Assembly: GCA_038231455.1 (NCBI GenBank)
Contig: JBBRLI010000001.1
Location: forward strand, 1-64,000
DNA from: Vulcanimicrobiales bacterium
Lineage (GTDB): Bacteria > Vulcanimicrobiota > Vulcanimicrobiia > Vulcanimicrobiales > Vulcanimicrobiaceae
Reading direction: 5' to 3'
Length of the DNA stretch: 64,000 nt
Below are positions 15,726 through 22,730 of this stretch, one piece after another. The notes under the pieces are model-generated. The model had not been told where the DNA came from and did not search any database. It saw only the letters and a program-made list of their open reading frames with translations. The translations under genes were made by a program, and so were the position numbers. Each line of letters starts with the position of its first letter. Positions within the stretch are counted from its first letter, which is position 1.

Positions 15726-16622
15726 ATGAAAAAACCGATCAAACCGGCGAGTTTCGCGGTACTCGCCGCGTTCGTGGTTGCTGCACCAGTGTGGGCGGCA
15801 AGCGCAGAGCCGACGGTCCGGATTGTCGCTCCAGCGATGGGCGCCGCGCCAATCACGACCGCCGAGATTCCGGTCACGGTCGCAGCGAGCAATTTTGATG
15901 TCGAGTGCAAGAATGTCGGCCAATCAGCGAAATCCGCACGCGGCCATTATCACGTGATGATCGATGGCATGACGATGGCGCAAATGACGAATCTCTATTG
16001 CACGAACTCATTCGCGATCTCGGGCGCAGCGCTCAAAGCCGGCGAACACACCCTGGCGGTCGTGCTCGCAAGCGACGACCATGTCAACGTCGGCAAACCG
16101 GCGATGACGAAGTTCGTGTATCAACCCGCGACGCCGCATCCGCTTCCCAAAGCAGAGGTCGCGCAAAAGTCAACGGTCGCCATTCTCTCCCCGAAAAACG
16201 GCGCGACGGTCGGGCGAACGTTGAGCGTACGCGTCGCGGTCTCCGGCTTCGATCTTTCCTGCGACCTGGAAGGAAAGCCCGACGTTGCGGGTTACGGACA
16301 CCTCCACGTCTTCGTATTGCAAAATGGAATGATGGCGCCCGCGACGGGCATGCATGGCGACGGCGAGATGCAAGGAGTCGAAATGAAAGGCGACATGAAG
16401 GCCGTCGACTTGAAAGATGAAAAGGGCAATGGCATGAAAATGGGCGGTATGGAAAATATGGCAATGCCCGGCATGGTTGGCATGCCCTGCTCGAAAACCG
16501 TTCCGCTGGACTTGAGCGCCTGGAATCCCGGCAAGACGAAGTTGATGGTCATGCTTGCCAACAACGACCACATGCCGACGGCGGGCGCCGTTCCCGCTAT
16601 CATTGACGTCACGCTGAAGTAG
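15726..16622 (+). CDS. Secreted protein with two tandem GHxH-containing (DUF4399/DUF6130-like) domains and a Met-rich insert; putative metal-binding
   Basis: AGGAG SD and signal peptide; repeated C...GH(Y/L)HV...C...(D/N)DH pattern; Met/Gly-rich loop in the second repeat. Confidence 0.7.
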   Translation: MKKPIKPASFAVLAAFVVAAPVWAASAEPTVRIVAPAMGAAPITTAEIPVTVAASNFDVECKNVGQSAKSARGHYHVMIDGMTMAQMTNLYCTNSFAISGAALKAGEHTLAVVLASDDHVNVGKPAMTKFVYQPATPHPLPKAEVAQKSTVAILSPKNGATVGRTLSVRVAVSGFDLSCDLEGKPDVAGYGHLHVFVLQNGMMAPATGMHGDGEMQGVEMKGDMKAVDLKDEKGNGMKMGGMENMAMPGMVGMPCSKTVPLDLSAWNPGKTKLMVMLANNDHMPTAGAVPAIIDVTLK

Positions 16623-16626
16623 CGTC

Positions 16627-16785
16627 GTGACCTATCTCGAGGCTGTCACCGACTACGATCGTGTTGCCAAATCGCCTGAGGTCGGGCTGTGCTGCGTCGG
16701 CGGAAGCCGACTCACGTTCCCGGGTCTGTGCGTTCCGCCGGAGATGCAAGCGATGAGCTACGGCTGCGGCGCGTTCGGGCGATAG
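16627..16785 (+). pseudogene. arsM: 5' remnant (52 aa) of an arsenosugar-type arsenite S-adenosylmethyltransferase
   Basis: Manual translation from GTG: MTYLEAVTDYDRVAKSPEVGLCCVGGSRLTFPGLCVPPEMQAMSYGCGAFGR*. This matches my recollection of cyanobacterial ArsM N-termini (MTYLE...P.VGLCCV...PGL.IP..MQ.MNYGCG). Below the ORF-track cutoff. Confidence 0.75.
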
Positions 16786-17444
16786 AATCGCGCGAGTCGC
16801 TGCGGCGCGACGCCGATTCGGTAGAGCGTCATGATCGAGATCCAGGTCCAGAGCGTGCGAATCGGCCGGCGATGATAGCGTCGCGACGAGGTGATGACGG
16901 CAAGCGGCAACCGCATCGTGCGCCCGCGCTTGCGCATCGCGACGCTAAAGGCGTAGTCTTCCATAATCGGCGCGTCGCCAAATCCACCGATTGCTTCGTA
17001 CACGGTACGGCGCACGAAAATCGCGCTGTCGCCGAAATACGTGCCAAATGCGTGCTGTCGCAAACGGTAGATCGTTTCGAACATCGACGCAACGAACGTC
17101 TGCTCGTCGAAACGGAGCGCGAAATTTCCGCCGACGATCTCCGAATGGCGCAAAAAAGCGCGTATGGCGTCAAATGCTCCGTGGGGCAACGCCGTATCCG
17201 CGTGCAAGAACAACACGATCTCGCCCGATGCGACGCGCGTTCCGGCATCGAGCTGTTTTCCGCGGCCGGGTCCGCAGGAAACAGTCCTCGCCCCGAGCGT
17301 GGCGGCGCGAGCGACCGTACCATCGCTGCTACCACCGTCGGCGACAATCCATTCCCAAGGGCCGGACTGCGCATCCAAATCGCGGGCGCGCTCGGCGAGG
17401 TTCGCGAATTCGTTGAGGGTCGGCATGACGACCGAGATGCGCAT
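16758..17444 (-). CDS. GT2 glycosyltransferase, TIGR04283-like (arsenosugar/rSAM-selenodomain associated)
   Basis: ISVVMPTLNE, DGGSSDGT, GRGKQLDAG, FLHADT, FGDSAIFVRR, MEDY, TSSRRY. Confidence 0.88.
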   Translation of the reverse strand: MRISVVMPTLNEFANLAERARDLDAQSGPWEWIVADGGSSDGTVARAATLGARTVSCGPGRGKQLDAGTRVASGEIVLFLHADTALPHGAFDAIRAFLRHSEIVGGNFALRFDEQTFVASMFETIYRLRQHAFGTYFGDSAIFVRRTVYEAIGGFGDAPIMEDYAFSVAMRKRGRTMRLPLAVITSSRRYHRRPIRTLWTWISIMTLYRIGVAPQRLARFYRPNAPQP

Positions 17445-17465
17445 CAAAGATCAATGAGGAGAACC

Positions 17466-17951
17466 GTGACGAAAATCCCGCCACTGACGCTCGATCGCTC
17501 GCCGCTCCTCGCTCGGCCCTATTTGCAAAGCGCCAGTCCGCTCGCAGCGATGCTGGCGCACGTCCCGGAGTTGCTCGAAGCGACGATGCCGTTCGTCTCG
17601 GTAGTGCTCGGACCATCGCAGCTCGGCGAACGACTCAAACACTTGGTCGTACTGCGGACATCCGTCTGCAACGCTTGCCGGTATTGCACGCGCGTCTACT
17701 CCGAGGGCGGCGGCTCCGGACTCTCGGCCGACGACATTGCCTCGATCCGCACGCCGCAACCGCTTGCAACGCTCTTTAACGAGCGCGAACGAGCAGCGCT
17801 TGCGTTCGTCGATCGGTTCTGTGCCCAACCCTCCGGAAGCATCGAGTCACTGCGCGCACACTTTCGTGACGATGAGATCGTCGCGCTTGTCACAATCGCC
17901 GGGGCGACCGACTTTCTCAACCGATTCGCGACGGCGCTGGGCCTCGAATGA
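17466..17951 (+). CDS. Carboxymuconolactone decarboxylase/AhpD-like protein with CxxC
   Basis: GAGGAG SD then GTG; LKHLVVLRTSVCNACRYC; HFRDDEIVALV...NRF; ATGA overlap with the next gene. Confidence 0.8.
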   Translation: MTKIPPLTLDRSPLLARPYLQSASPLAAMLAHVPELLEATMPFVSVVLGPSQLGERLKHLVVLRTSVCNACRYCTRVYSEGGGSGLSADDIASIRTPQPLATLFNERERAALAFVDRFCAQPSGSIESLRAHFRDDEIVALVTIAGATDFLNRFATALGLE

Positions 17952-18760
17952 TCGCTGAATCGACGCGAGCGACGCGCGGTCGCCTCTGGTTCTATACCAA
18001 TTACCACTGCAATCTCGAGTGCCGATATTGCTTGACGGAATCGCGACCGGACGCGCCGCGTCGCTCGCTCGATCGCGAACTGATCGAAACGATCGCGACG
18101 GAGGCCGTCGAGCTGGGATTCGATTCGTTTGGCGTGACCAGCGGCGAGCCGTTTTTGCGCACCGACATGCCCGAAATCCTCGAATCGCTCGGGACGCGGC
18201 TCCCGACGGTCGTCTTGACGAACGGGACGCTCTTTACGCCGCGCCTACTCGATCGTCTCACGCTGCTTGCAAAGCTGCCCGTCGCGATGCAAATCTCGCT
18301 CGATAGCGCCGAGCCGGACGTCAACGACGCGATGCGTGGCGCGGGCGGGTTCGCGAAGATCCGCGCAGCGATTCCGGCGCTAATCGCGCGCGGGATTCGG
18401 GTCCGAATTGGAACGACTGCGGACGAAGGCACGAACCTCGTGTCACTGTGCGAACTCCATCGCTCGTTTGGAATCAGCGATGACGACCACGTGGTGCGGC
18501 CGATCATCCGTCGCGGACGCGCGAACACGAACGGCCTCGGGATCGAAGCGGCTTTTGAAGACCTGCCGGCCGAGATGACGATCACCGCCGAAGGCGCCTT
18601 TTGGAGCCCGGCCGCTCCGACGGTCCAGAACGACCGCCTCGATATTTCGTACCTCCTGAGTAGAACGGTTCTGCCCCTCGACGTTCCAGTCGATGCAATG
18701 GCGCGTGTCGGGAGCGAACAGCCGCTTCGCGAGGGGGCATTTCGAGTTACCTGAGCGTAG
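17948..18760 (+). CDS. Radical SAM protein; ends at TGA 18754, or at TAG 18760 if the UGA is read as selenocysteine
   Basis: LWFYTNYHCNLECRYC (CX3CX2C), TSGEPF (GGE variant), LTNG, QISLDS, NDAMRG. Confidence 0.88.
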
Positions 18761-18785
18761 GCGCCACCTCCGGTCGGAGGTCAGC
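18752..18785 (+). promoter_or_regulatory. Candidate bacterial SECIS element
   Basis: TGA, then 11 nt, then ACCTCC-GGTC-GGAGGT. Same 11-nt offset and GGUC apical loop as the E. coli fdhF SECIS; no T-tract. Confidence 0.5.
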
Positions 18786-18853
18786 ATGAAAACAGGAACC
18801 ACACTCCGCTGACAAGAGATGTCATTCGCGTCCCGTTTGGTCGGTAAAATCGG

Positions 18854-19519
18854 CTACAGGTGAATGGTCGCGAGAACGGCGTTTGTATGAGGCGCCACCG
18901 ACTCGTCGGCGTCGCGGCGCAAACGTTGAAGCGATGCAACATCATCGATATCGTACCATTCGGGCAAGAGCGCGACGCGCAAATGGAGAGCGCTCGCCGC
19001 CGCCCGCGTCTGCTGCATCACCGCACTCGTACTCCAGTCGATTCCCTCGAAAATCGCACGCTGTTCGGCACGCAACGCAATGAGATAATAGCCGCCATCC
19101 GTCGCCGGTCCGATGACGACGTCGTGATCTTCCAGCTGTGAGAAAGCCCCTTCGATCATCGCCGGCGGGACCGTCGGGCTATCGGTTCCGACGAAGCACA
19201 CCGTTGAAAAGCCGACCGCGGCAAGTGCTCCGTACGCCTGTTGCAGCCGCTCTGTCAAATCTCCATCGCTCTGGGCCACAAGACAGATATCCGCACCGAG
19301 AAGCGCGCGAAACCACGCCTCGCTGTCGGAAGGCGCGAACAACACGATCGGTGTTGCATTGCATGCGCGACCAACGCGCTCCATCGTCTCAACCGTGTCG
19401 CGCAGAAAAGCCCGCGCGAGATCGGCCGCAGACTCTGCCGAGAGCGCGGGCATCAAGCGCGTCTTCACGCATCCCGGCTGAGCGGCTTTCGCAAAAATCG
19501 CAATGGCCCGATCGCTCAT
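18854..19519 (-). CDS. TIGR04282/DUF2064-like nucleotidyltransferase-fold transferase (arsenosugar associated)
   Basis: IFAKAAQPGCVKTRL, QSDGDLTERL, GTDSP, GPATDGGYYLI, IDWST, DIDD. Confidence 0.9.
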   Translation of the reverse strand: MSDRAIAIFAKAAQPGCVKTRLMPALSAESAADLARAFLRDTVETMERVGRACNATPIVLFAPSDSEAWFRALLGADICLVAQSDGDLTERLQQAYGALAAVGFSTVCFVGTDSPTVPPAMIEGAFSQLEDHDVVIGPATDGGYYLIALRAEQRAIFEGIDWSTSAVMQQTRAAASALHLRVALLPEWYDIDDVASLQRLRRDADESVAPHTNAVLATIHL

Positions 19520-20970
19520 GACTTGGGCAGCAACATGTCGAGCGGTGGAGCGTCTCCGCGCAGACCACGCAATCGACGCAGAAGCGAGAGCGCAAGCGGA
19601 GTCCTCTGCCGGATGATGGACGCATCGGCCGCACGCCGCACGCCCATTCCATACGTTGGATACACATGCAACGTATCCGCGAGCGCACGCAGCGGAAGCC
19701 GCCGCGCGCGCGCGAGCCCGATTTCAGCGATGAGTTCGCCGGCACGCGCACCGACGACGGTCCCACCTAGCACGCGTCCGCGGCGCGATGTCAAGATCGA
19801 AATGAAACCTTCCTCGGCGCCGTCGACGATCGCTCGATCGAGCCGCGCATAAGGGAACGTTTCCACCGTATAGGGGCGCGATGCGACGCGTAGCTCGTCT
19901 TCGCTCGGGCCGACTCGCGCCAGCTCAGGATCGGTGAACGTCGTCCACGCAACGGCGTCGCGATCGAAGCGCGCGGGGAGTCCGACGATTCCATTCATCA
20001 CGGCAACGGTGGCCATCCGCTCCGCAACGTGCGTGAAGCGCGCCTCGGTCGCGCAATCGCCGACTGCGAAGATGTGGCTCCGGTTCGTTCGGCACGCGGC
20101 ATCGACCGCTATCAGACCATCACGCGTTTGCACGCCGACGCGCGCGAGATCGAGATCGGCGATCCGCGCCTCGCGTCCGACCGCAGCAAAAATGCGATCC
20201 GTCTCAACGATCCCTCCGTCAGAGAGCGTGACGCGCAGACCGTTTGTGTGTTGCAGGGCCTGCGCGATCCGGCGCTCGGTTCGAATGTCGACACCATCCT
20301 CGCGCAGCGCGCGCGCCACGATATCGGCCGCCTGCCGCGGATCTCGCGCGAGAATTCGCGCTCCGTCGAAGACCATCGTCACCTCAACACCCAAGCGCAC
20401 GAATGCCTGACTGAGTTCGACGGCGACGGGGCCGCCACCAACGACGAGCATGCGTGCAGGGAGTGTCTCGAGATCCCAAATGCTCTCCGAGTCGAGCGTC
20501 GCTACACCGACATCGAGTCGAATGGGCCGGCTCCCGGTGGCAAGAAAAATCCGCCGCGCCCGCAGCGTCGCGGGTCCCTCGCCATCGAGCGCAAGCGTGT
20601 GCGGATCGACGAAACGCGCCGCAGCGCGTACCGTTTCGACGTTGTAGCGGGCGAGCACATCCGGGGAGTCAGCGTCGGTATAGATGCGTTCTCGAACCGC
20701 GCGCACGCGTTCCAATACACGCCGACTGTCGACACGGACCGATGCGTCGATGCCAAAACGCGCGCCGCGTCGTGCATCTGCGGCGATTGCGGCTGCGCGT
20801 AGCAATGCCTTGCTCGGAACACAGCCGTTCCAGGTGCAGTCTCCGCCAAATCGTGCCGCCTCGATGAGAATCGTCTTGGCGCCTAAGGCCGCCGCGCCGG
20901 CGGCGGCGGTCAAACCCGCTGCTCCCGCACCGATCACCGCGCAGTCGTAGGTCCTCACGTCCGTATCCAC
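19516..20970 (-). CDS. FAD-dependent pyridine nucleotide-disulfide oxidoreductase (LpdA/MerA-like, no C-terminal CC)
   Basis: GAGAAG, GGDCTWNGCVPSK redox disulfide, FTDPELA, HVYPT. Confidence 0.9.
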   Translation of the reverse strand: MDTDVRTYDCAVIGAGAAGLTAAAGAAALGAKTILIEAARFGGDCTWNGCVPSKALLRAAAIAADARRGARFGIDASVRVDSRRVLERVRAVRERIYTDADSPDVLARYNVETVRAAARFVDPHTLALDGEGPATLRARRIFLATGSRPIRLDVGVATLDSESIWDLETLPARMLVVGGGPVAVELSQAFVRLGVEVTMVFDGARILARDPRQAADIVARALREDGVDIRTERRIAQALQHTNGLRVTLSDGGIVETDRIFAAVGREARIADLDLARVGVQTRDGLIAVDAACRTNRSHIFAVGDCATEARFTHVAERMATVAVMNGIVGLPARFDRDAVAWTTFTDPELARVGPSEDELRVASRPYTVETFPYARLDRAIVDGAEEGFISILTSRRGRVLGGTVVGARAGELIAEIGLARARRLPLRALADTLHVYPTYGMGVRRAADASIIRQRTPLALSLLRRLRGLRGDAPPLDMLLPKS

Positions 20971-21755
20971 GCATCGCGCTGCGTTACGAACGGAAGCGCG
21001 AGCATCGTACGTAACGTTACCTCACTTGCGCGTTGGTATGCCGGCAGGCCGGTCTCAAGGACAACTCCGCCTGTGCTTCGCGTCCGATGGAGCCAATCCC
21101 AAAAAGCAAGTCCGCTCGACCAATTGCTATGCTGATCCGCGCGCTCGGCGCGATGGTGGATACCGTGCAGACGCGGCGTAACGATGAGCAAACCGAGGAC
21201 ACGTTCGAGGCGCGCGGGCAGCGCAACGTTTGCATGATGAAAGATGACCGAAAGCCCGAAAAGACGTTGCCAGAGCGTGAAGGCACGAGGCGTGACGCCG
21301 AAGACGGTGACCTGGGCCAAACGAACGGCGACGGAAAGCACGATCTCGATGCCGTGAATGCGTAGCGCTGACGTTAGGTCGCATTCGCGGTCGGCGTGAT
21401 GGACCACATGCAGCCGCCAGAGCAGCGGAACGCGATGCAGAGCCATGTGCCACAAGTAGATGCCGTAATCGAGCAGAACGACGGCCGTAAGATCGCGCAC
21501 CCATCGCGGCGCGGGCAAGCGTGCTAACAATCCGAGACCACGCCGTTCGACGTGAACGGCAGCGCGTAGCGCTAGCGGTCCCTCGATGAGACTCGTCGCC
21601 GCAAGCGCGATGACGTCGAGGACGCCGTTGCGCAGAAAGCGTTTGAAACGCGGCTCGCGCCGGGCGCGCGCCGGCGCGATACGCTCGGCGATGAACAAGA
21701 GTCCTACTTCGACGAGAACGAGCGATGCCGTGAGGCGATCCGATTGTTGAAAGAC
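20955..21755 (-). CDS. Sterol desaturase/fatty acid hydroxylase family protein; start uncertain (TTG 21698, or GTC 21755 after an SD)
   Basis: His boxes WHMALH, HVVHH, FHHAN, HGIHH. The frame stays open upstream to the crp stop. Confidence 0.85.
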   Translation of the reverse strand, partial: VFQQSDRLTASLVLVEVGLLFIAERIAPARARREPRFKRFLRNGVLDVIALAATSLIEGPLALRAAVHVERRGLGLLARLPAPRWVRDLTAVVLLDYGIYLWHMALHRVPLLWRLHVVHHADRECDLTSALRIHGIEIVLSVAVRLAQVTVFGVTPRAFTLWQRLFGLSVIFHHANVALPARLERVLGLLIVTPRLHGIHHRAERADQHSNWSSGLAFWDWLHRTRSTGGVVLETGLPAYQRASEVTLRTMLALPFVTQRDAWIRT

Positions 21756-21764
21756 GGTAATCTC

Positions 21765-22730
21765 CTAACCGACGGCGCTATGAATCAGACGGTCGATCGC
21801 GCCGATTTGAAGTCCATCAAGGTTCGGAATGACGAAATGATGCGTGGCATCGGTTTGCAGAACGCCCGCCCGCTGCAGCCGCGAAATTTGCGTACTACAC
21901 GCCTCGCGCGTCGCTCCGGCGAAGCTCGCGATTTGCTGGTGCGAGAAACGGATTCCGATGCGGATCGCTCCGTTGGGAAGGCGCTCGCCGTGTTCTTCTG
22001 CCAAATGCCGCAACACGGCGACGACGCGTCCACGAACGGTCGCATACGCCGTGCCGGCGATGCGCGTTTCGCTTGCCGTGGCACGGCGGGCGATCTCCCG
22101 TGCGACCATCATCGTGAGTTGCGGACGGTGACGCATGAGCGAAGCGAAATCCTCAACTGAGGCAGCGCAAATATGCGCGGAGTCCATTGCCTGCGCGACC
22201 GTAAGACGCTGGCGTTCATCGAAGAGTGCAAGCTCCCCAAACATATCGCCCGGTCCGAGCACCGCAAGCGTCGCTTCTTGACCGTCTTCCGTTATGCGGT
22301 AGATGCGGACGTGTCCGGTCTTGAGGAGATAGACCGCATCGCCGAGATCGCCCTCATCGAAGATGACGTGATTGGGCGGATAGTCGGCCTCTCGAAAGAG
22401 ATGCGCCATCTTCTCGATCTCCTCGAGCGGAACGCCACTGAAAAGGCGGTTGCGCTCGAGAAACCAGACTTTGTTCGGCACGAGCGGAGCTCCGGGAAAG
22501 CGCGCGAGGATGCCCCTCAGACGTTCGAGCGAGGGCGTCCCCGTTACCCGCTTCCCATCGGGCAGCACGAGGGTGGGCGTAACGACGGGCAACCCCGGTC
22601 GCGACGGCTCTCGATCGAGCGAACGGATCTCGAAGGCGACTCGCTCATCTTCTTGGGCAAGTTCGATGAGTCGCTCGATCGCGCGCGGCGAAAAAGGACA
22701 CGCATCACGAACGAAAAGCGTCGCCTTCAC
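21765..22730 (-). CDS. Crp/Fnr regulator with an N-terminal glutaredoxin/thioredoxin-like domain
   Basis: N-terminal LFVRDACPFS...VVTPTLV...GTPS (Trx-fold CxxS and cis-Pro), then a cNMP domain (GDMFGE) and HTH (SHQQIASFAGATREACS); no intervening stop. Confidence 0.85.
   Translation of the reverse strand: MKATLFVRDACPFSPRAIERLIELAQEDERVAFEIRSLDREPSRPGLPVVTPTLVLPDGKRVTGTPSLERLRGILARFPGAPLVPNKVWFLERNRLFSGVPLEEIEKMAHLFREADYPPNHVIFDEGDLGDAVYLLKTGHVRIYRITEDGQEATLAVLGPGDMFGELALFDERQRLTVAQAMDSAHICAASVEDFASLMRHRPQLTMMVAREIARRATASETRIAGTAYATVRGRVVAVLRHLAEEHGERLPNGAIRIGIRFSHQQIASFAGATREACSTQISRLQRAGVLQTDATHHFVIPNLDGLQIGAIDRLIHSAVG

Follow-up and report, generated by a model that had tools for sequence, protein, structure and literature searches.

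We describe a gene for a radical S-adenosylmethionine (SAM) enzyme in the first 64,000 nucleotides (nt) of contig JBBRLI010000001.1 of a Vulcanimicrobiales bacterium (GenBank assembly GCA_038231455.1; this whole stretch is called the window below). The gene very probably encodes a selenoprotein with a selenocysteine-alanine (Sec-Ala) tail, in which an in-frame UGA is recoded by way of a downstream hairpin with a GGUC loop; the tail may act as a redox arm. Sec decoding at the TGA at position 18752 is strongly supported by the comparison of gene ends, and aligned homologs show a pair of Cys and predicted Sec at the penultimate position, together with a covarying hairpin, resembling a Sec insertion sequence (SECIS), that is tied to the TGA. 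Standard annotation most likely cuts the Sec-Ala tail off in a widespread protein family of soil bacteria. The end of the gene comprises the following features:

17948..18760, plus strand: radical SAM selenoprotein gene as re-read here, 270 codons (M1...T268-U269-A270) followed by TAG
17948..18754, plus strand: the same radical SAM open reading frame according to genetic code table 11, 268 aa, with the TGA as its stop
18752..18754, plus strand: penultimate codon TGA, read as selenocysteine U269, aligned with the tail Cys of the Cys-form homologs
18755..18757 and 18758..18760, plus strand: Ala codon GCG and true stop TAG, the tail after U269
18766..18781, plus strand: candidate minimal bacterial SECIS, in which the stem ACCUCC/GGAGGU (6 bp) closes the apical loop GGUC

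The gene finishes with the letters GCA TTT CGA GTT ACC TGA GCG TAG, followed by GCGCC and then by the hairpin, whose perfect stem is built from ACCTCC (18766-18771) and GGAGGT (18776-18781) around a GGTC loop (18772-18775). Eleven nt separate the TGA from the stem, after which comes CAGCATGAAAACAGG (also given as CAGCATGAAAAC), and a T-run is absent. An earlier note on this DNA, made from the letters alone, had described this gene end, the 11-nt spacing, the two arms with their GGTC loop and the lack of a T-tract, all of which agree exactly with the sequence; it went on to propose a C-terminus ...FRVT-U-A that standard annotation would shorten. Because only Ala and a stop come after the UGA, the candidate SECIS lies wholly in the 3' untranslated region (UTR). 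The minimal SECIS of Escherichia coli fdhF starts 11 nt past its UGA and has a GGUC loop as well, a description for which our literature search found no confirming passage; it lies in the coding sequence, whereas the element in the window is a bare hairpin in the 3' UTR (stem range in the family, 5-9 bp). The published model of bacterial SECIS elements (PMC13188914, section 5 and legend of Fig. 2) allows 3-9 nt in the apical loop and 4-16 bp in the upper stem, and asks for a G at loop position 1 or 2 followed by G or U, a distance of 16-37 nt between UGA and apical loop and a free energy of -7.5 kcal/mol or lower. Loop, stem, G, spacing and energy of our hairpin all fall inside these ranges, with a 4-nt GGUC loop, 6 bp, 17 nt between UGA and loop (18755-18771) and -9.3 kcal/mol.

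Folding of this single sequence is suggestive, since it beats shuffled sequences only mildly: 4/200 shuffles fold as well as the hairpin alone, and its 55-nt context has a z-score of -1.81, with 12/200 shuffles as good. The bacterium's own genome (7,421,706 bases scanned, both strands) holds 139 GGTC-loop hairpins whose stem is 6 bp or longer, and only five of these, the one in the window among them, sit 17-27 nt past a TGA closing a frame of at least 80 codons. Rfam gave a chance match only at the hairpin (16 bits) and nothing at gathering level over the whole window, in which no tRNA genes were found. It is the comparison with relatives, unlike folding alone, that settles, as far as sequences can, that the hairpin exceeds chance.

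This comparison drew on 48 genome locus entries (the window, L021-L035, L039-L050 and L053-L072), seven of them duplicates, and on 80 metagenome loci, one of which runs off its contig, for a combined set of 111 distinct 3' ends. Six loci of this set come from unpublished genomes (L025, L045, L048, L058, L063 and L072); TGA forms make up 98/105 when these are left out, and the conclusion is independent of them. Alignment A4 includes four of the six (L048, L058, L063 and L072), and the phylum-sample and selA tallies given below include flagged genomes. A stop, one sense codon and a second stop follow each other in 105 of the 111 ends, an arrangement that has a background of 43 among 2297 long TGA-ended frames in the same genome as the window. 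The first stop is TGA in 104 of these 105 and TAG in the other (L027), and the remaining six ends (L053-L057 and L075) have Cys among their last four codons, finishing C-A or C-G, at times with one more residue. Homologs thus carry at this position either TGA (104) or Cys (6), as the Sec reading requires. The residue that follows the TGA is small (Ala in 89 forms, Gly in 8, Val in 4 and Thr in 3), whereas the one that precedes it is mostly Arg (72), then Thr (12), Cys (6) and rarer others; C-U-A would be read in 6/104 TGA forms.

The hairpin follows the same division. A GGTC starting 17-27 nt past the first base of the codon was found in 82/104 TGA forms, in 0/6 Cys forms and in 113/2297 background frames, and a looser loop pattern in 101/104 TGA forms and 1/6 Cys forms. 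A simple finder detected a stem of 5 bp or more, free of interruptions, in all 36 non-Cys genome-derived ends. Since MAFFT misaligned hairpins with 3- or 5-nt loops when given the raw 3' ends (alignments A1 and A3), pairs were counted only on the 24 of these 36 hairpins that have a 4-nt GGTC loop and align free of gaps. Standard pairs fill 96.3% of the 161 cells; six of the seven pairs are changed on both sides, with 44 doubly changed cells; none of 500 shuffles attains these values, and when the partner is slid by 1-3 columns only 35-47% of cells stay paired. The earlier note had made its proposal depend on conservation of the hairpin, and compensatory changes are indeed present, while the hairpin is absent after the Cys forms.

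Read conventionally, the TGA would be an ordinary stop, the protein would end ...FRVT, and the hairpin would be a terminator devoid of a U-tract or a stem that stabilises the mRNA. We regard this as extremely improbable, even though table 11 yields a complete 268-aa radical SAM domain, public annotation ends there in 118 of the 120 best matches, the single-sequence folding is just mildly better than shuffles, and U-less stem-loop terminators have been described in bacteria of high G+C content. An ordinary stop leaves unexplained why one sense codon (Ala, Gly, Val or Thr) and a second stop should follow at the frequency reported above and why a nearly invariant C-GGUC-G loop should stand at a fixed distance and be absent after all six Cys forms; moreover, the TGA aligns exactly with the invariant tail Cys. 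As to termination, which the earlier note had named as one of the outcomes that would undo its proposal, the terminator scan found 0 sites within 18600-19000, and the hairpin lacks the combination of GC-rich stem and following T-run by which intrinsic terminators are recognised.

At the protein level, 118 of the 120 best database matches end at the residue directly ahead of the TGA, as judged by eye from their printed tails (...RVT, ...NIR, ...RIR, ...RIC or ...LVA), which bears out the expectation that standard annotation shortens the protein; the other two (P0036 and P0049) end ...SCA or ...TCA. The named homologs appear in their source records as 'radical SAM protein' or 'hypothetical protein'. 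An exhaustive HMMER search over cluster representatives gave 42 with E <= 1e-30, and among the 48 representatives listed 11 end C-A or C-G, some with one additional residue. P0138 is a bona fide member of the Rv1681 family (437.4 bits with NF049973, covering profile positions 1-326 end to end), and since its alignment includes the last profile position and its own final residues are IFRCA, the conserved end of that family is Cys-Ala. Bona fide Rv1681-family tails read ...F[RN]CA, FVCG or FPCG, and the Cys-Ala-like tail of related radical SAM proteins, mentioned in the earlier note, is therefore real. The tail Cys column is invariant, like C21, C25 and C28, in alignment A2 of our protein with 11 homologs picked because they end in a Cys tail. 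In alignment A6 (53 rows, not selected by tail) no Cys other than C21, C25 and C28 is invariant, which means that there is no set of Cys for an auxiliary cluster.

The genome itself has the complete Sec machinery for which it was to be checked. The genes selA (520.4 bits) and selB (275.3 bits) are adjacent on contig C28, tRNA-Sec (selC) scores 71.6 bits and is called tRNA-SeC with anticodon tca by ARAGORN, and selD (385.5 bits) carries an in-frame TGA whose canonical GAG-U-ASK Sec site counts in favour of Sec decoding in this organism. selD is present in 4/4 carriers of the radical SAM gene tested, and selA in 15/17 genomes with TGA forms and 3/5 with Cys forms. Machinery, TGA/Cys homologs and covarying hairpin all favour the predicted C-terminus ...FRVT-U-A. 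The selD gene (G000:C7:149929, locus L001) is a selenoprotein gene in its own right, in which the TGA of the GAG-U-ASK site is followed by two stem-loops, the second with a GUU-containing loop.

The window protein matches Pfam Radical_SAM (PF04055) with 73.5 bits against a gathering score of 29.5 and carries the motif CNLECRYC, that is, CX3CX2C. Its best NCBIfam match is NF049973 (Rv1681-family radical SAM), at 210.6-210.8 bits below the cut-off of 380 and over profile positions 67 to about 310 of 326; no model of NCBIfam release 20.0 scores it above its cut-off. The TusA-like N-terminal region of that profile (positions 1-66) is missing, and the penultimate Cys followed by Ala or Gly that characterises the Rv1681 family appears here as predicted Sec-Ala. 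The enzyme is a member of a large TusA-less sister group of the Rv1681 (MoeX) family. Three other identities were rejected: ArsS (TIGR04167; 35.2-35.7 bits against a cut-off of 300, and no ArsS above cut-off anywhere in the genome), TrsS (NF045646; 25.2 bits against 490) and the CUAEP/CCAEP-tail family (NF040546; 468 positions, cut-off 500), which has no match at the gene.

AlphaFold2, given the 53-row alignment, yields a model with a mean predicted local distance difference test score (pLDDT) of 92.8 and a predicted template modelling (TM) score of 0.90, with a mean pLDDT of about 60 over the last ten residues, so modelled as a probably flexible C-terminal segment. Its Foldseek neighbours are radical SAM cores: SkfB (E 7.9e-11), SuiB and BlsE (TM 0.70 on the query), and further viperin, MoaA, EpeE, the anaerobic sulfatase-maturating enzyme anSME and DesII. 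Several of these use nucleotides or nucleotide-sugars as substrates. The EpeE entries include a C223A mutant of what we take to be the catalytic H-donor Cys. The genes that surround the enzyme are:

17466..17951, plus strand: AhpD-like, carboxymuconolactone-decarboxylase-family CxxC protein (Pfam CMD, 39.4 bits)
16758..17447, minus strand: TIGR04283-family, GT2-like glycosyltransferase (212.4 bits, cut-off 182), divergent from the AhpD-like gene
18854..19519, minus strand: TIGR04282-family (DUF2064, CofC-like) transferase (187.3 bits, cut-off 134), convergent with the radical SAM gene
19516..20970, minus strand: pyridine-nucleotide-disulfide oxidoreductase with GGDCTWNGCVPSK (Pfam Pyr_redox_2, 193.4 bits)
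20955..21698, minus strand: fatty-acid-hydroxylase-family membrane protein (Pfam FA_hydroxylase, 78.7 bits), first gene of the minus-strand trio

The stop of the AhpD-like gene overlaps the ATG of the radical SAM gene (ATGA), and its start, GTG 17466, was inferred from the preceding GAGGAG; numbered from there, its CxxC is C71 and C74. In tblastn searches, an AhpD-like gene lies immediately upstream on the same strand in 85/92 TGA-form loci that have at least 600 nt upstream, and in 37/40 of those with at least 2 kb on each side. CxxCxxxH is conserved in these proteins, with C71 and C74 invariant across 37 rows. The frame of the AhpD-like gene in the window stays open for about 260 codons further upstream (16689-17951, plus strand), across the opposite TIGR04283 gene, an artefact of high G+C content that could mislead gene callers to a 420-aa product. 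The same protein has an additional Cys three residues ahead of the CxxC. On the other flank, the TIGR04282 gene product also matches Pfam DUF2064 (111.4 bits), and its start is overlapped by the disulfide oxidoreductase gene.

These elements suggest how the enzyme might work. UGA 18752 would be recoded by SelB and tRNA-Sec, steered by the minimal GGUC hairpin 11 nt downstream, and a fraction of ribosomes would probably stop there, as at fdhF. The Sec so inserted would take the place of the conserved penultimate Cys of the Rv1681 proteins. The tail is the only conserved Cys-type residue besides the cluster ligands and lies on a low-confidence segment of the model, and for this reason we propose that it may be a swinging selenol arm that enters the active site to donate an H atom or an electron, or to serve as a covalent handle. 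Outside the active site it would be reduced again by the co-translated AhpD-like CxxC protein, a partner proposed because its gene stands directly upstream in so many loci; in the lineage of the window, the adjacent flavoprotein disulfide reductase would feed the AhpD-like protein. This role of the selenol tail, an arm for redox or H-atom transfer that the AhpD-like protein would recycle, carries less weight than the Sec decoding. A relay from lipoamide dehydrogenase to AhpD in mycobacteria offers a parallel, and mammalian thioredoxin reductase (GCUG) and ribonucleotide reductase have flexible C-terminal tails whose redox-active Sec or Cys moves back and forth from a buried active site to an outside reductant. 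The folds and chemistry of these two enzymes are unrelated to ours, and the likeness, an analogy, would back the proposed mode of action alone. The substrate, though this is a weak inference, is probably a small molecule, sugar-like or linked to a nucleotide, on which the adjacent TIGR04282 and TIGR04283 transferases would also act.

The main functional rival accepts that Sec is inserted and makes the tail bind the substrate or a metal: it might hold a metalloid or chalcogen (arsenic, selenium or sulfur) for an ArsS-like adenosylation, carry a persulfide or perselenide, or else ligate an iron of the cluster. We consider it unlikely, although a number of observations lend it colour. The two transferases known as companions of ArsS flank an enzyme whose genome has no ArsS above cut-off. 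Some Cys-form relatives (P0138 and P0142; E 8e-6 and 2.6e-4) have a weak match to a TusA-like, sulfur-carrier domain at their N-terminus, below the gathering score; another Cys form (P0148) is fused to a metallophosphoesterase domain. At the true Rv1681 locus L053, where Rv1680-like and Rv1679-like genes adjoin, Rv1680 resembles a putative selenate-binding protein (88.5 bits) and Rv1679 is related to sulfur-acquisition enzymes. Against this, the match to ArsS reaches 35 bits only and the Sec of ArsS sits in a C-terminal domain of another kind, the AhpD-like CxxC neighbour, present at nearly all loci, favours redox recycling of a thiol or selenol, and no arsenic gene turned up in the cluster, although no search was aimed at such genes. 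The earlier note had linked the enzyme to radical SAM/selenodomain systems through the two transferases; it was right about the genes, which adjoin here, and the part that fails is the enzyme, which is not TIGR04167 (ArsS) and represents a different radical SAM family beside the two transferases defined for it.

Alternatively, the UGA might be a selenium switch that gives an active 270-aa enzyme when selenium is at hand and a 268-aa form, inactive or differently active, when it is not. According to PMC4513850, only 30-40% of ribosomes recode the fdhF UGA of E. coli and sufficient selenium is needed, so recoding there is both partial and selenium-dependent; in our model, the loss of two residues would leave a folded protein. 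On the other side, the sequence data give the short form no sign of a function, and Cys forms, which are unable to switch, occur in both major clades. We find such a switch improbable, more so than a binding tail; it is compatible with a Sec-Ala redox arm rather than opposed to it.

Several observations weigh against the Sec-Ala redox arm or parts of it. Locus L027, from a metagenome-assembled genome (MAG) of Blastococcus (G402), reads TAG-GCG-TAG yet keeps an intact GGUC hairpin, a perfect one of 7 bp (L027:4784-4819) in a genome with selA and selD; the Sec codon may have been lost here recently, TAG and TGA differing by two bases, or the TAG may reflect a variant in the assembly. In 6/78 metagenome TGA forms the simple finder missed any unbroken stem of 5 bp or longer; when folded, these six keep only the C(C)GGUCG(G) core on mismatched stems. 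Because pairing was the criterion by which the 24 covariation hairpins were picked, their share of paired cells is in part circular, an objection that does not touch the diversity of pair types seen at fixed places about the invariant C-GGUC-G. Co-occurrence with selA and selD was dropped as a test of Sec because it fails to discriminate, selA being present also in 260/401 sampled genomes of the same phylum. Among the 40 TGA-form loci with at least 2 kb on each side, single-query tblastn with the window proteins, which undercounts neighbours, recovered TIGR04282 in 19, TIGR04283 in 8, the disulfide reductase in 2 and the hydroxylase in 2; given its rarity, the reductase belongs to the version of the window's lineage only. 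Finally, where at least 90% of the 37 aligned partners have the His of CxxCxxxH, the AhpD-like protein of the window has Tyr.

The named carriers of the gene belong to Vulcanimicrobiota/Eremiobacterota, Dormibacterota and Actinomycetota (Blastococcus, Acidimicrobiia and others), with one Deltaproteobacteria MAG. In even samples of 401 genomes each, the gene was found in 11 from the window's phylum (E <= 1e-40) and a relative in 20 from the phylum of L030, 15 of them TGA forms and 5 Cys forms; a scan of metagenomes confirmed at least 550 relatives. A quick maximum-likelihood tree of 53 proteins, rooted at its midpoint, splits into two groups separated by a branch with 100% support in the Shimodaira-Hasegawa-like approximate likelihood ratio test. 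The first group has 40 rows, including the window, and 2 Cys-tailed rows branch within it at different points; 8 of the 13 rows of the second are Cys-tailed. From this placement of the Cys-tailed rows, Cys and Sec have probably been swapped more than once. TIGR04282 and TIGR04283 genes recur beside Sec and Cys forms alike, with TIGR04283 directly downstream in 4/5 actinobacterial Cys forms. The Cys forms L054-L057 have long N-terminal fusions (557-676 aa), and the TGA-form locus L035 has an Rv1679-family dehydrogenase next door.

Several known systems resemble parts of this one. The Rv1681 (MoeX) family has the CX3CX2C motif and the C-terminal region in common with our enzyme, with its penultimate Cys where Sec is predicted here; it differs from the window enzyme, which scores below its cut-off, has no TusA-like N-terminus and would have Sec for Cys, and also in context, since L053 has the Rv1679-Rv1680 pair where our enzyme has the AhpD-like gene upstream. 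ArsS is a radical SAM enzyme too, is often a selenoprotein (it is listed among selenoprotein families in PMC13188914) and has the same two transferase families; according to the same source its Sec lies in a GxxU motif, whereas ours would be penultimate. The CUAEP/CCAEP-tail family, named in the preprint 10.1101/2022.07.06.499078, also has Sec in a short C-terminal tail of a radical SAM protein, and the C-U-A of six TGA forms recalls it, but our tail stops at Ala, with no E-P. TrsS is another radical SAM selenoprotein (PMC13188914), against whose model the window enzyme has the low score already given. In unrelated families, SaoC and KCU-star (the latter listed in PMC13188914) also place Sec at the protein end, so that the SECIS comes after the true stop. 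SaoC has UGA-UAG, a 7-bp stem and a GGU loop; both proteins have Sec at the very C-terminus, whereas the Sec predicted here is penultimate and followed by a small residue.

Review tables of radical SAM selenoproteins hold, in the parts available, only TIGR04167 (PMC9312934) or TIGR04167 and TrsS (PMC13188914, of 2026), and the CUAEP-tail family was named in the 2022 preprint (10.1101/2022.07.06.499078). The words 'radical SAM' appear nowhere in the available text of the deep-Sep paper or of the BSepDB main article. No description of the present family was found in the literature searched, and Haft & Tolstoy 2025 or the full BSepDB table may list it. More speculatively, and we would rather doubt the full scheme than adopt it, this might be a fourth, so far unrecognised family of radical SAM selenoproteins, common in soil Actinomycetota, Eremiobacterota and Dormibacterota, with Sec-Ala as H-atom donor, an AhpD-like relay, and ArsS replaced by it in the cassette. 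If this were true, a Sec-Ala tail with a SECIS wholly in the 3' UTR would go together with a private selenium-sulfur relay through a dedicated AhpD-like CxxC protein, and the cassette would mark a pathway to a modified sugar, a lipid head group or an organo-chalcogen or metalloid compound.

Under the Sec-Ala reading, public annotation of these proteins is two residues short and drops what is probably the key catalytic residue. The family would add to the bacterial selenoproteome of phyla known mostly from soil metagenomes and offer a natural SECIS that is very compact and stands outside the coding sequence. The family would also give the uncharacterised Rv1681/MoeX family a testable functional residue, the penultimate Cys, and tie the AhpD-like protein to the radical SAM enzyme as its likely redox partner.

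Some minor observations concern the surroundings of the cluster and its relatives. At L053, the Rv1680 binding protein also matches the putative selenate-binding family, as scored above, and the Rv1679 gene is acyl-CoA-dehydrogenase-like. In the window, positions 15726-16622 (plus strand) encode a DUF4399 protein (33.2 bits) that looks secreted. Close to its C-terminus it has a run rich in Met, ...GNGMKMGGMENMAMPGMVGMP..., whose composition suggests binding of a metal, possibly copper; the gene is kept beside the cluster in L021 and L022. A 321-aa open reading frame at 21765-22730 (minus strand) is kept beside it in the same two loci, and its product, judged by eye, resembles a regulator of the Crp type, extended at the N-terminus by a segment with a CPFS motif.

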